A stretch of DNA of 64,000 bases from Escherichia coli (GTDB lineage Bacteria; Pseudomonadota; Gammaproteobacteria; Enterobacterales; Enterobacteriaceae): assembly GCF_965641715.1 (NCBI RefSeq), contig NZ_OZ282453.1, one strand, 5' to 3'. The notes beneath the pieces were generated by a model. The model worked only from the letters and a program-made list of their open reading frames with translations. It was not told where the DNA came from and searched no databases. The stretch's first letter is position 1. Every line of letters begins with the position of its first letter. Shown here piece by piece: positions 46,112 to 51,322 of the stretch. The position numbers and the translations under genes were made by a program.

Positions 46112-46807
46112 ATGCGACTTGATAAATTTATCGCACAGCAACTCGGCGTTAGCCGTGCTATTGCCGGGCGTGAAATCCGCGGCAATCGTGTCACCGTCGA
46201 TGGCGAAATCGTCCGTAATGCAGCGTTCAAACTGCTTCCTGAACATGATGTCGCTTACGATGGCAACCCGCTGGCGCAGCAACACGGTCCACGTTACTTC
46301 ATGCTCAATAAGCCTCAGGGCTATGTTTGCTCCACGGACGACCCTGATCACCCAACGGTGCTCTATTTTCTTGATGAACCAGTGGCGTGGAAACTGCACG
46401 CAGCAGGGCGGCTGGATATCGATACCACCGGTCTGGTGCTAATGACTGATGATGGTCAGTGGTCGCACCGCATTACTTCTCCGCGCCATCATTGCGAGAA
46501 GACCTATCTGGTGACGCTGGAATCACCCGTAGCTGACGATACGGCAGAGCAATTTGCTAAAGGCGTGCAGTTACATAACGAAAAAGATCTCACTAAGCCG
46601 GCGGTGCTGGAAGTGATTACCCCAACGCAGGTTCGTCTGACCATCAGCGAAGGGCGTTATCATCAGGTGAAACGCATGTTCGCCGCTGTGGGTAACCATG
46701 TGGTTGAGCTGCATCGTGAACGTATTGGCGGCATTACGCTGGATGCTGATTTAGCCCCCGGTGAATATCGTCCGTTAACTGAAGAAGAAATTGCCAGCGT
46801 CGTCTAA
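46112..46807 (+). CDS. rsuA: 16S rRNA pseudouridine(516) synthase RsuA
   Basis: 231-aa ORF; S4 domain then RsuA-family catalytic region ([17 protein letters not shown]). Confidence 0.94.
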
Positions 46808-46834: not shown

Positions 46835-48025
46835 GTGACCACCCGACAGCATTCGTCGTTTGCTATTGTTTTTATCCTTGGCCTGCTGGCCATGTTGATG
46901 CCGCTGTCGATTGATATGTATCTGCCCGCGCTACCGGTAATTTCAGCGCAGTTTGGCGTACCGGCGGGCAGTACGCAGATGACCCTCAGTACTTATATTC
47001 TGGGCTTTGCGTTGGGGCAGTTAATCTACGGGCCGATGGCAGACAGCTTCGGGCGTAAGCCGGTGGTTCTTGGCGGTACGCTGGTGTTTGCCGCCGCCGC
47101 GGTGGCGTGTGCGTTGGCACAAACCATCGATCAGCTGATTGTGATGCGTTTCTTCCACGGGCTGGCGGCGGCTGCGGCCAGCGTGGTTATCAACGCTTTG
47201 ATGCGTGATATCTACCCGAAAGAAGAGTTCTCGCGGATGATGTCGTTTGTCATGCTGGTGACAACCATTGCACCGCTGATGGCACCGATAGTTGGCGGCT
47301 GGGTGCTGGTGTGGCTGAGCTGGCATTACATCTTCTGGATCCTCGCCGTGGCGGCGATTCTGGCTTCGGCAATGATCTTCTTTCTGATCAAAGAAACCTT
47401 ACCACCGGAGCGTCGCCAGCCTTTTCACATTCGTACCACTATTGGTAACTTTGCGGCGCTGTTCCGTCATAAGCGTGTCCTGAGTTATATGCTGGCCAGT
47501 GGTTTCAGCTTTGCCGGGATGTTCTCGTTCTTAAGCGCCGGACCGTTTGTCTACATTGAAATTAACCACGTCGCGCCGGAAAACTTTGGTTATTACTTTG
47601 CACTAAACATTGTTTTCCTGTTCGTGATGACCATCTTTAATAGCCGCTTCGTCCGCCGTATTGGCGCGTTAAATATGTTCCGCTCGGGGTTGTGGATACA
47701 ATTTATTATGGCAGCGTGGATGGTCATCAGTGCGCTGCTGGGGCTGGGATTTTGGTCGCTGGTGGTTGGCGTTGCGGCGTTTGTGGGCTGCGTGTCGATG
47801 GTGTCATCCAATGCGATGGCGGTCATTCTTGATGAGTTTCCCCATATGGCGGGAACGGCATCTTCGCTGGCAGGAACCTTCCGTTTTGGCATAGGGGCAA
47901 TTGTTGGCGCATTGCTTTCTCTTGCGACCTTTAACTCTGCATGGCCGATGATTTGGTCAATTGCATTCTGCGCAACCAGCTCCATTCTCTTCTGTCTGTA
48001 CGCCAGTCGGCCGAAAAAACGGTGA
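46835..48025 (+). CDS. bcr: MFS efflux transporter Bcr (bicyclomycin/multidrug resistance)
   Basis: 396-aa ORF with GTG start and AGGAG Shine-Dalgarno; 12-TM MFS protein. Confidence 0.93.
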
Positions 48026-48357
48026 TCTATTGCACAACGAGGAAGCTAAAAGGCTTCCTTTGTTGATGCATGTCAACCACAAATCTATCATTCCCCCGAT
48101 ATATGTTTATTTTATGTAAAATCAATTTATGTAAAAAGTCACATCATTGTAGTTAAAAAGGTTGAGTTAGATCGCAGAAACGGGTACATATAGCCCCGCA
48201 AACGTGACCACGCCCGCAGATATTACTTAAATCAGAGCCATAGAGGCCACGCAGGCGAGGCATCAATCTTTACGATCTGTATAAAGACGGATTGTTGATG
48301 ATGTGTTAAAATTGATATAAATAAATTGTGAAGTAAATGTGCTTCCGGGGAAAATAA

Positions 48358-48702
48358 GTGACTTCATTACAACTCTCAATCGTCCATCGACTGCCGCAGA
48401 ACTATCGCTGGTCTGCTGGTTTCGCAGGTTCGAAGGTTGAACCGATTCCGCAAAATGGACCGTGCGGTGACAACAGCCTGGTGGCGCTTAAATTGCTTAG
48501 CCCGGATGGTGATAATGCATGGTCGGTGATGTATAAACTAAGCCAGGCGTTAAGCGACATCGAAGTTCCATGTTCGGTGCTGGAGTGTGAAGGTGAGCCG
48601 TGCCTGTTTGTAAATCGCCAGGACGAGTTTGCTGCAACATGCCGATTGAAAAATTTTGGTGTGGCAATTGCCGAACCCTTTTCAAACTACAATCCTTTTT
48701 AA
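48358..48702 (+). CDS. yejG: Uncharacterised protein YejG
   Basis: 114-aa [38 protein letters not shown]...; recognised by sequence and position. Confidence 0.85.
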
Positions 48703-48705
48703 GCG

Positions 48706-50295
48706 TCAGCTCAACGCCAGTAGCTGACGCGTATACTCCTGCTGCGGTGTGGCAAACACGCGCGCGCACGGTCCTTGTTCCACTACTTCCCCTTGTCGCA
48801 GTACGATAACCTGATGACATAACGCGCGGACAACGTGCAAATCGTGGCTGATAAACAAATAGGCCAGTTGATGCTTTTGTTGCAATGATTTCAATAGCGT
48901 CAATATTTGCGCCTGTACCGTTTTGTCGAGTGATGATGTCGGTTCATCAAGTATGATCAGCGAGGGCTTAAGAATTAATGCCCTGGCAATCGCAATACGT
49001 TGTCGCTGACCACCAGAGAACTCCGCCGGATAACGGTGGCGTGTTTCAGGATCTAATCCCACTTCATGCATCACGGCTATCACTTGTTGTTCGCGTTGTG
49101 CGGCAGAAAGCGTCGGCTGGTGAACCCGTAAGCCTTCCTCAATAATCTGCAAAACGTTGAGTCGTGGGTTGAGCGAGGAGTTTGGATCCTGAAATACCAC
49201 CTGAATGCGATGACGAATAGGTAACAGCTGGTGGCGATTTAAATTTTGCAGTGGCTGACCGTCAAAGATGATGCTGCCCTGAGAATTAATCAGTCGCAGC
49301 AGCGCCAGTCCCGTCGTGCTTTTCCCGGAACCAGACTCGCCTACTAAACCCAGTGTTTCACCCGCTCGTAGCGTAAAACTGATGTTTTTCACCACCACAT
49401 TATGATCCACAATGCGCTTCAAAATCCCTTTGCGAATGGGGAAGGCAACCTGAAGCTGTTCAACATCCAGCAACGTTGAGGCAGGTTCTGGCAATGGCAC
49501 CGGGTCGCCTGACGGTTCACTGTTGAGTAGCTTTTGTGTGTAAGGATGAGTGGGTGAGGCAAATAGCGTAGCGGCGTTATTTTGCTCGACACAGCGACCG
49601 TTTTGCATTACCGCCACGCGGTGGGCCAGTTTTCTGACAATGCTGAGGTTATGAGTAATAAACAGCATGCCCATATTCAGCTCGCCTTGCAGTTCGCGCA
49701 ACAGCTGTAAAATCTGCGCCTGGACAGAGACGTCCAGTGCGGTGGTCGGTTCATCGGCAATTAATAATTCCGGTCGCGTTAACAGCGCCATCGCAATCAT
49801 CACCCGCTGGCGTTCGCCGCCGGAGAGCTGATGTGGATAATCTGTCAGCCGTTTTGCCGCCTGGCGGATACCAACGCGATCAAGGCAGTTAAGAATTTCA
49901 CCACGAGCCGCTTCCCGACGCATCCCGCGGTGGAGTGAAAGCACTTCATAAAGCTGTTTTTCCAGGGTATGCAATGGATTTAACGACACCATCGGCTCTT
50001 GAAAAATCATGGCGATCTTATTACCGCGTACACCGCGCAACGTTTGATCGCTGGCATGAAGCAGCGATTCGCCATGAAAACGAATATCGCCGGAGAGATA
50101 TTCAACCGGCGGGGAAGGGAGCAGGCGTAAAATTGACAGCGCGGTAACGCTTTTGCCTGAACCTGACTCACCCACCAGCGCCAGCGTTTCGCCAGCCTCA
50201 ATCTGTAGTGAAACATCATTGACTACTGTACGTACGGTTTGCTGATGGCGAAAACCCACCGACAAATCTTCAATCGCTAACAGAGTTTGCGTCAT
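48706..50295 (-). CDS. yejF: Peptide/microcin C ABC importer, double ATP-binding protein YejF
   Basis: ORF 48706-50343 trimmed to ATG 50295 ([13 protein letters not shown]..., 529 aa); two ABC cassettes, each with Walker A GESGSGKS. Confidence 0.9.
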
Positions 50296-50296
50296 G

Positions 50297-51322
50297 CTAC
50301 ACCGCCTTATTAGGATCAAATGCGTCGCGGACGGCTTCACCAATAAAGATCAGCAAAGACAATAATATCGCCACCGACAAGAAGGCGGTGATCCCAAGCC
50401 ACGGAGCCTGAAGGTTATTTTTCCCTTGTAACAGCAGTTCACCGAGTGACGGTGAACCGAGCGGCAGACCGAAGCCGAGGAAATCGAGTGAGGTCAGGGT
50501 GGTGATCGAACTACATAAAATAAACGGTAAAAAGGTGAGGGTCGCGACCATGGCATTAGGCAACATATGACGCAGGATGATACTGCGATCGCTGACGCCA
50601 AGCGCCTGCGCCGCACGAATGTAGTCGAAATTACGGGTACGTAAAAACTCCGCCCGCACCACGCCGACCAGACTCATCCAGCCAAACAAGACAGTAATTG
50701 CCAGCAGCCACCAGAAGTTAGGCTGTACGACGCTGGAAAGTAAAATAATCAAAAACAGCGTCGGCATCCCCGACCATACTTCAATAAAGCGTTGTCCCCA
50801 GAGATCGACTTTACCGCCGTAATAGCCTTGTAGCGCCCCCGCCAGCACGCCCATCACGCTGGAACAGAGAGTCAGCATCAGGCCAAACAGAACCGAGATC
50901 CGCGTGCCATAGAGAATACGTGCCAGCACATCGCCGCCGTTGGCATCCGTTCCCAGCCAGTTTTGCCGGGAGGGTGGAGAAGGGAAGGGCTTATCGGTAG
51001 CAAAGTTGATACTGGTAGCACCAAAGCGAATCGGTGCCCACAGTACCCAGCCGTTATTTTCCAGCCGTTGTTTCAGCCACGGGTCCTGATAATCAGCCTG
51101 ACTTGCCAGAGGGCCGCCAAAATCGCTTTCACTGTAATTTTTCAACAACGGGAAATACCAACTGCCGTCATAACGCACCAGCAACGGTTTATCGTTGGCG
51201 ATAAGTTCAGAACACAAACTCAAACCAAACAAAACGAGGAAAATCCATAACGACCAGTAGCCGCGACGGTTATGGCGAAAACGCGCCCAACGGGCCTGAT
51301 TGACGGGGCTGAGTCGCGACAT
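50297..51322 (-). CDS. yejE: ABC importer permease YejE
   Basis: 341-aa polytopic ORF; binding-protein-dependent transport permease. Confidence 0.92.
   Translation of the reverse strand: MSRLSPVNQARWARFRHNRRGYWSLWIFLVLFGLSLCSELIANDKPLLVRYDGSWYFPLLKNYSESDFGGPLASQADYQDPWLKQRLENNGWVLWAPIRFGATSINFATDKPFPSPPSRQNWLGTDANGGDVLARILYGTRISVLFGLMLTLCSSVMGVLAGALQGYYGGKVDLWGQRFIEVWSGMPTLFLIILLSSVVQPNFWWLLAITVLFGWMSLVGVVRAEFLRTRNFDYIRAAQALGVSDRSIILRHMLPNAMVATLTFLPFILCSSITTLTSLDFLGFGLPLGSPSLGELLLQGKNNLQAPWLGITAFLSVAILLSLLIFIGEAVRDAFDPNKAV

Follow-up and report, generated by a model that had tools for sequence, protein, structure and literature searches.

Intrinsic terminators place a G+C-rich stem-loop directly past a stop codon and a T-run behind it, their stems vary by compensatory change, and those between convergent units may act in both directions. 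Class I CRP promoters, of the lac P1 type, carry CRP at -61.5 and the alpha-CTD of RNA polymerase between CRP and the -35 hexamer, and class I/II activation by FNR takes place from -41.5 or about -61.5. PhoP boxes are made of two elements 11 bp apart. The elements of ArcA boxes are TGTTA-like, often number three to five, and follow each other with the same 11-bp geometry (Park et al. 2013). Among the predicted FNR sites of the E. coli genome, many are 'silent', i.e. they lack an FNR ChIP peak and carry nucleoid-protein signal (Myers et al. 2013). Here, we compare with these systems the spacer between bcr and yejG in a 64-kb stretch of Escherichia coli DNA (hereafter the window). We consider it probable that the hairpin at the upstream end of this spacer is the bcr terminator and that the AT-rich repeat behind it is a DNA-level control sequence of the distal yejG promoter, P2, rather than part of a leader. 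It is routine for the upstream region of a promoter to come after a terminator, and the transcription starts, the FNR-type box and the recovery of yejG by CRP SELEX are already published. The only point of modest interest is an uncharacterised and unusually conserved block of DNA in which the repeat lies.

The spacer (48026-48357) measures 332 bp, from the bcr stop codon TGA (48023-48025) to the start codon of yejG, a GTG at 48358. Downstream, the stop of yejABEF lies 3 bp from that of yejG (Table 1). A 601-bp query around the interval found a match in 5425 of 5426 complete E. coli genomes at 97-100% identity, O157:H7 being the first match listed (99.8%). Relative to K-12 MG1655 the spacer is of equal length and shows three differences, each of them close to the proximal promoter P1; the alignment to K-12 contains no indels, which verified the coordinate map used to place published data. 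The K-12 annotation contains zero features between bcr and yejG. For comparisons between species we assembled 80 YejG-encoding loci, one genome per species, and counted the conservation of individual elements among the 70 distinct enterobacterial sequences that they provide. In most of the 80 loci bcr is directly upstream of yejG, and in the majority the spacer is about 310-340 bp long.

Table 1. Coordinates, in the window, of the genes and sequence elements around the bcr-yejG spacer
Feature	Position	Strand	Remarks
rsuA	46112-46807	+	RsuA matches NCBIfam equivalog model
bcr	46835-48025	+	Bcr matches NCBIfam equivalog model
bcr hairpin, core stem	48040-47 / 48052-59	+	AGGAAGC(U) / (G)GCTTCCT, loop AAAA
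FNR-type palindrome TTGATGCATGTCAA	48063-48076		9/10 versus TTGAT-N4-ATCAA; overlaps terminator T-run
TTGATG-17-TATCAT	48063-48091	+	best sigma-70 consensus match of the spacer; predicted start ~48098, score 13.1
Conserved non-coding block	48102-48194		93 bp; upstream region and core of yejG distal promoter P2
TGTTTA-N5-TGTAAA	48104-48120	+	TGT-type elements 11 bp apart, ArcA/PhoP-like; repeat copy 1 has the second as its core
Repeat copy 1 TTTATGTAAAA	48111-48121	+	-88 to -78 versus P2 start
Repeat copy 2 TTTATGTAAAA	48126-48136	+	-73 to -63 versus P2 start
CRP-like site TATGT-N6-TCACA	48128-48143		centre 48135.5, about -63.5 from P2; overlaps copy 2
P2 core, hexamers	48162-67; 48185-90	+	-35 TTGAGT, 17-bp spacer, -10 TACATA (position-weight scan)
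P2 core, further parts	48153-48194	+	UP-like A-tract TTAAAAAGG 48153-61; GATC 48170-73; TATAGC 48189-94
yejG P2 start	48199	+	primer extension; U00096.2 2,276,419
P1 promoter, extended -10 TGTTAAAAT	48304-12 within 48293-48312	+	position-weight scan; block conserved across genera
yejG P1 start	48319	+	primer extension, U00096.2 2,276,299; also Kim et al., SMRT-Cappable-seq
Second yejG 5' end	48330	+	Kim et al.
Small 5'-UTR hairpin GAAGUA/UGCUUC	48330-45	+	-4.4 kcal/mol, not significant alone; sequence conserved
yejG Shine-Dalgarno GGGGA	48347-51	+	
yejG	48358-48702	+	YejG (PRK11835) matches NCBIfam equivalog model
yejF	48706-50343	-	

The hairpin after bcr has several attributes of an intrinsic terminator. 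The string quoted for it in the initial annotation, CGAGGAAGCTAAAAGGCTTCCTTTG, is located at 48038-48062; the core spans 48040-48059 and the stem, which can be extended, imperfectly, to 48031-48070, begins 6-15 nt past the bcr TGA. The segment 48026-48075 folds with -21.6 kcal/mol (z = -5.1), an energy equalled by none of 200 shuffles, and the reverse strand is stable as well (-17.5 kcal/mol, z -5.2). In E. coli the tail TTTGTTGAT (48059-48067) is an interrupted T-run, with 6 T in 9 positions, and for this reason the hairpin escaped a strict terminator scan; in most other genera the stem is followed by TTTTTTGAT or a longer T-run. Hairpin and T-run are found at the same position in about 65 of the 70 distinct sequences, with stems as unlike as GGAAGCC, GGGAGC, GGGGGC, AGGCCC, GAGCGC and GGGTCCC, among others, and compensatory double changes affect six of the seven consensus pairs, as judged from a crude alignment. 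The curated Term-seq list of Adams et al. 2021 has no sense-strand 3' end of bcr at the T-run. In the SMRT-Cappable-seq map rsuA-bcr is listed as a single unit without yejG, which forms a separate unit. Position, stability, covariation across genera and the published unit maps thus agree, and support the conclusion that transcription of the rsuA-bcr unit terminates intrinsically at this hairpin. The terminator-like structure that had been described right after the bcr stop is real.

The hairpin is also associated with an RNA end on the other strand. In supplementary file 1 of Adams et al. 2021, Term-seq places a 3' end at K-12 2,278,567 (+), i.e. at window position 48028 on the minus strand, which is called dominant and occurs in two tables, with 1086 and 3147 reads; the flanking sequence given for it is the reverse complement of window 48018-48078. 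This end is located 3 nt past the foot of the extended stem. Since no U-tail follows the hairpin on the minus strand, it may result from trimming to a stable stem instead of true termination. Together with the stable fold of this strand, it suggests that RNA arriving from the yejG/yejF side is likewise halted, or protected, by the hairpin. Antisense or read-through RNA from that side would end at, or be trimmed to, a point 3 nt past the hairpin.

The AT-rich segment that follows, described as containing one sequence twice within about 25 bp, withstood scrutiny. The two copies of TTTATGTAAAA start 15 bp from each other, in a segment of 24% G+C, and the window has no other exact match to them. 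When the spacer was dinucleotide-shuffled 5000 times, 0.12% of the shuffles contained an exact, non-overlapping repeat of at least 11 bp within 30 bp (P about 0.001). The core of copy 1, ATGTAAAA, is kept in 63 of the 70 distinct sequences; that of copy 2, (A/G)TGTAAAA, is kept in 52 and has disappeared from Franconibacter, Siccibacter and the Klebsiella oxytoca group. The copies are spaced by 15 bp, which matches no known tandem-dimer geometry.

The repeat makes up the upstream half of the conserved block. In 25 species of other genera the block is on average 89% identical to that of E. coli, against 78% for the yejG coding sequence, 55% for the third codon positions of yejG, and 48% and 37% for the stretches of spacer on either side of it. 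Within E. coli, 5136 of the 5425 genomes have the block at 99% identity or more; it is single-copy and unannotated, and we found no further copies of it in these genomes. Several elements are nearly fixed among the distinct sequences: the TTG of the P2 -35 hexamer in all 70, TGTTT (48104) and TACATA in 68 each, the GATC of the P2 spacer in 63 and TCACA in 54. A search for a consensus RNA structure in the block found none on either strand (alifold energy about 0, z about 0). Conservation of this kind, with neither an RNA fold, nor an Rfam match, nor a stable reading frame, is the pattern of protein-binding DNA. The block is thus most likely a multi-protein DNA control region, for which CRP, an ArcA/PhoP-type regulator, Fis and H-NS are the candidates. 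The spacers of the CRP-like site and of P2 are conserved too, a fact for which CRP and sigma-70 by themselves do not account, and these conserved spacers suggest further constraints. The proposal in the initial annotation that the interval holds a regulatory site is borne out in kind, the repeat being in a block more conserved than the coding sequence of yejG and directly upstream of a mapped promoter; a transcription start and a conserved motif both exist in the interval.

One might ask if the repeat has any sequence-specific role at all. The segment might be bound generically by H-NS or Fis, or be curved, and the identity of the two copies might be left over from an old local duplication. 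The H-NS ChIP-chip region of Myers et al. 2013 indeed spans the whole bcr-yejG spacer, a Fis ChIP-seq signal lies on the FNR-type box upstream, the low G+C content and the 15-bp spacing that suits no dimer are in line with such a role, and copy 2 is degraded in several genera in which the rest of the block is intact. Yet, ATGTAAAA, TGTTT and AAAAAGTCAC hardly vary between genera, in contrast to the freely drifting AT-rich spacer that flanks them, regions bound by nucleoid proteins are not normally conserved base by base, and the repeat is improbable given the composition of the spacer. We therefore hold a generic role to be rather unlikely. Coding can be dismissed more firmly. A 17-codon open reading frame (48103-48156, MFILCKINLCKKSHHCS) covers the repeat, which it would translate into a duplicated LCK motif; it is open in E. 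coli, and its ATG or TTG start is kept in 68 of the 70 distinct sequences. However, its length of 17 codons is kept in only 34, most of the others have from 3 to 30 codons, and in three no stop closes the frame inside the block. Nor is there a Shine-Dalgarno sequence, a transcript mapped over the frame (Kim et al., SMRT-Cappable-seq), or any annotation here in K-12 or in the 5425 genomes. The variable reading frame effectively refutes a small protein, which we find barely credible.

The position of the repeat relative to the transcription starts is central to its interpretation. By deconvolution of sigma-70 ChIP-seq data, the dPeak paper resolved two binding events ahead of yejG, one at about 48330 and the other at about 48186, and its Table 1 gives the starts then mapped by primer extension, at U00096.2 2,276,299 and 2,276,419. 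We converted the starts to window positions via the primer sequences (yejGP2 = 48226-48246) and the start-site sequences of Kim et al., and obtained the P1 and P2 starts of Table 1. The P2 start is absent from the lists of Kim et al. and of SMRT-Cappable-seq and rests on a single primer-extension experiment; the accessible part of the Cappable-seq supplement has no entry in the interval. In the P2 core, TATAGC overlaps the TACATA hexamer and a G+C-rich discriminator comes next. A start at 48199 puts the repeat at -88 to -63 of P2. The segment had been described as an AT-rich leader, a view that these data do not support: the mapped starts of yejG, at 48199, 48319 and 48330, are all downstream of the repeat, and there is none upstream of it in the start-site maps examined.

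A leader would require another promoter, and the spacer contains a candidate. Transcription starting at about 48098 would produce a 5' UTR of about 260 nt in which the block acted as RNA, e.g. through the ATG-TAA units formed by an ATG directly followed by TAA inside each copy of the repeat. The corresponding hexamers, TTGATG-17-TATCAT, are the best sigma-70 match in the spacer, the -35 being the left half of the FNR-type box, and RpoD genomic SELEX picked them as the 'constitutive promoter' of the spacer. But no start near 48098 was detected by primer extension with the primer at 48226-46, by Kim et al. or by SMRT-Cappable-seq, and the sigma-70 binding events resolved by dPeak are just the two given above. 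Moreover, TATCAT lies in an unconserved segment, no RNA structure is conserved in the block, and neither ATG of the repeat is preceded by a Shine-Dalgarno sequence. TTGATG-17-TATCAT is thus probably not a major promoter in vivo, and an RNA function of the block in a long leader seems improbable to us.

The segment had also been proposed as a possible small-RNA promoter, with the remark that no known small RNA could be recognised. The remark agrees with our Rfam scan of 47800-48900, where even at a permissive threshold only noise was obtained (best E = 0.086, with 21.7 bits where the gathering score is 80). The promoter itself is not demonstrated, there being neither an Rfam match, nor a conserved RNA structure, nor a mapped start. 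One form of this hypothesis would be a minus-strand promoter in the repeat, TTTACA-15-TAAAAT, with a start at about 48102 and an RNA of about 75 nt that ended at the bcr hairpin. Its TTTACA is the reverse complement of the core of repeat copy 2, its score of 9.7 makes it the third-best promoter-like match of the spacer, the predicted 75-nt transcript folds with a terminal hairpin, and a 3' end is mapped where it should be, at 48028. In addition, according to PMC6505713, the RNA-seq study of Raghavan et al. 2011 listed a novel, unplaced 'yejG-bcr' small-RNA candidate. These points are countered by several others. Sigma-70 is poorly served by a 15-bp spacer, only 36 of the 70 distinct sequences have the final T that a -10 hexamer needs, and the part that would be transcribed is the unconserved spacer (48% identity). 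The hairpin has no U-tail on this strand, Rfam has no match, and neither Kim et al. nor SMRT-Cappable-seq has a start there. Finally, the 3' end at 48028 could equally belong to a longer antisense RNA, made from the TTGAGA-17-TATTTT match at 48379-48351, at the yejG start, or by read-through from yejABEF. We thus give little credit to a 75-nt RNA born in the repeat, and just as little to its being the candidate of Raghavan et al. 2011. It is similarly doubtful that the hairpin is a terminator shared with such a minus-strand RNA of about 75 nt, carrying the FNR-type palindrome, in which case the block would be a divergent control region for this RNA and yejG P2.

If the block is a control region of P2, as we favour, its motifs may indicate the regulators. 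In a comparison by eye with consensus sequences, TyrR, GalR-type, IHF, Fis, EvgA, GadE, MarA/SoxS, RstA, CpxR, KdpE, sigma-54 and sigma-32 motifs did not fit. Judged by motif, the leads that remain would be the ArcA/PhoP-type 11-bp phasing and CRP only. TGTTTA-N5-TGTAAA agrees at 11 of 15 positions with the ArcA box GTTAATTAAATGTTA and at 10 of 12 with the PhoP box, and is a putative site. Two ArcA-box-like pairs with 11-bp phasing occur in the spacer, at 48104/48115 and 48293/48304, and both are conserved. The second, TGTTG (48293) and TGTTA (48304), overlaps the extended -10 of P1, and its Salmonella counterpart GTCAATGATGTGTTA is a predicted ArcA site. In Salmonella, an arcA mutation raises yejG 2.9-fold, and H2O2 induces it 5.8-fold. 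The E. coli ArcA ChIP paper (Park et al. 2013) does not mention yejG in its main text.

The CRP-like site matches the consensus TGTGA-N6-TCACA at 8 of 10 positions in E. coli and at 9 of 10 (TGTGT-N6-TCACA) in about 30% of the loci. The match in E. coli alone is not beyond chance, the window containing 19 such matches where 25 are expected. CRP genomic SELEX lists yejG as a new target, a result obtained in vitro and at the level of the spacer. The expression of yejG depends on oxygen. The sigma-70 signal at yejG is 1462 against 56, values that we read as aerobic and anaerobic respectively, and its mRNA is 4.0-fold higher aerobically (Myers et al. 2013). Furthermore, yejG was reported to be specifically acid-induced and the RpoH holoenzyme gives a SELEX peak at about 48166; the supplement of an MNNG tiling-array study contains nothing on yejG.

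The FNR-type box, just upstream of the block, is found in most genera, often as a perfect TTGAT-N4-ATCAA, at a fixed spacing of -120/-121 bp from the P2 -10 anchor, and the 25 bp between box and block are unconserved. In Table S6 of Myers et al. 2013 the site at 48063-48076 is among 187 predicted FNR sites, with a PatSer score of 14.14; its next column contains '-', which we read as no FNR ChIP-seq peak (one of 124 such sites), and it is flagged as overlapping the Fis ChIP-seq signal. In the supplementary tables of that study yejG is not among the FNR-dependent operons and appears only in the aerobic/anaerobic tables. The centre of the box, 48069.5, is at -129.5 from P2 and -249.5 from P1. We also considered a class I/II FNR promoter driven from the box and rejected it: the -10 hexamers available to it are weak, unconserved or off-register, and no start is mapped at 48111 or 48131.

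These observations can be arranged into the following scheme, in which the hairpin structure and its conservation, the starts, the conserved block with neither RNA fold nor ORF, and the aerobic dependence of sigma-70 occupancy and of yejG mRNA are observed, and the bound proteins, with their effects, are what we infer. The hairpin would end the rsuA-bcr transcript 15-45 nt past the bcr stop. The control region of yejG would then comprise, from upstream to downstream, the FNR-type palindrome, TGTTTA-N5-TGTAAA, the CRP-like site, the A-tract and the P2 core. A response-regulator-type dimer such as ArcA would occupy TGTTTA-N5-TGTAAA, and with it copy 1 of the repeat; the CRP-like site at about -63 would overlap copy 2; the A-tract beside the -35 hexamer would serve the alpha subunit of RNA polymerase. 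The two copies of the repeat would hence be parts of two distinct protein sites with a common TGTAAAA core. This upstream region and the ArcA-like box over P1 would jointly make yejG strongly oxygen-dependent and responsive to stress. The gene is of unknown function; its expression is abundant, and responses to oxygen, to acid and to peroxide have been reported. The identity of what binds the repeat would tell when the cell wants YejG and thereby help to assign its function. It would also test whether 'silent' predicted FNR sites are truly non-functional.

How close is this locus to the systems with which we started? As in intrinsic terminators, a G+C-rich stem-loop directly past the stop codon precedes a T-run and evolves by compensatory change, and an A-run precedes the stem in many orthologues of the bcr hairpin; as in the bidirectional terminators of convergent units, the other strand, too, has a mapped 3' end. 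It differs from them in the interrupted T-run of E. coli, TTTGTTGAT, and in an opposite-strand end that has no U-tail. The pairs upstream of yejG resemble ArcA boxes in their phasing, in the anaerobic repression of the gene and in its derepression in the Salmonella arcA mutant, but their elements deviate from TGTTA, and the upstream pair is at -95 to -79 of P2 rather than over the promoter. The likeness to class I CRP promoters consists of a site some 62-64 bp upstream of P2, an A-tract abutting the -35 hexamer and recovery by SELEX, whereas the left half-site, TATGT, is poor, the centre is about 2 bp off and the interior of the site is conserved, something that CRP does not call for. The FNR-type palindrome shares with the 'silent' sites its place in their list (Myers et al. 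2013), its lack of a ChIP peak and its nucleoid-protein signal. Its position at -129.5 from P2 suits activation of neither class. And yet most enterobacterial genera have conserved it, often perfectly, with constant spacing to the P2 block, which one would not expect of a match devoid of function.

An FNR-type box, the palindrome TTGAT-N4-ATCAA, lies upstream of yejG, and the 64-kb window as a whole is rich in similar sequences. Allowing one mismatch, we found 8 matches where shuffles predict 2.3; none of 100 shuffles of the window reached 8. The box upstream of yejG is one of these matches; there are seven others.

Features of the yejG region (window coordinates)
Feature	Position	Sequence or K-12 coordinate
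3' end on the yejABEF strand, at the bcr hairpin	48028 (-)	
FNR-type box	48063-48076	
Symmetric element	48139-48152	TCACA-TCAT-TGTAG
Dam site in P2	48170-48173	GATC
Inverted repeat at P1	48274-48291	ATCTGT-N6-ACGGAT
-10-like hexamer	48316-21	TATAAA
Differences from K-12	48317, 48322, 48335	
Second mapped yejG 5' end	48330	
Stem-loop	48330-48345	GAAGUA/UGCUUC
Convergent ends of yejG and yejF	48702-48706	
3' end within yejF	about 48910 (+)	2,277,685 (-)
Rho-dependent region in yejF		2,277,275

With stop codons only 3 bp apart, the convergent genes yejG and yejF leave no space for an intervening terminator. Among the curated Term-seq RNA 3' ends of Adams et al. (2021), a very abundant one (about 170,000-210,000 reads), classed there as antisense to yejF, falls within this gene. 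It is presumably the terminus of the yejG mRNA, about 208 nt downstream of the yejG stop codon. If so, yejG would be highly expressed, with a 3' UTR overlapping the end of yejF. Further into this gene, a Rho-dependent region is reported. Among the curated Term-seq entries covered here, the first 3' end past yejF on the yejABEF strand is at the hairpin that follows bcr, 678 nt from the yejF stop codon. Should yejABEF transcripts extend that far, their 3' UTR would be antisense to the whole of yejG and to both of its promoters, the proximal P1 and the distal P2.

The bcr-yejG intergenic region differs from K-12 at three positions only, all clustered at P1. Two of them change GATGTAAAC to GATATAAAT, which yields an improved -10-like hexamer upstream of the second mapped yejG 5' end. 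This 5' end is also the first base of a small conserved stem-loop lying directly 5' of the yejG Shine-Dalgarno sequence. Taken alone the stem-loop is weak (folding energy -4.4 kcal/mol); it resembles the stem of the bcr terminator (GAAGC...GCTTCC; repeat family D3). The -35 region of P1 is overlapped by an inverted repeat that is perfect in Citrobacter amalonaticus (ATCCGT-N6-ACGGAT), present in Escherichia, Salmonella and some Citrobacter, and absent from Klebsiella and Enterobacter. The repeat may represent a clade-specific operator.

Further upstream, the symmetric element of E. coli is a perfect palindrome in the Klebsiella oxytoca group (TCGCA-TTGT-TGCGA): both sides have changed and symmetry is retained. 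A palindrome this short might mark a small dimer site or form a 5-bp stem in RNA.

Of 70 distinct enterobacterial sequences, 63 retain the Dam site in the P2 promoter spacer. Also conserved are the entire promoter spacer and the G+C-rich discriminator 3' of the -10 element. A plain sigma-70 promoter would not need such conservation.
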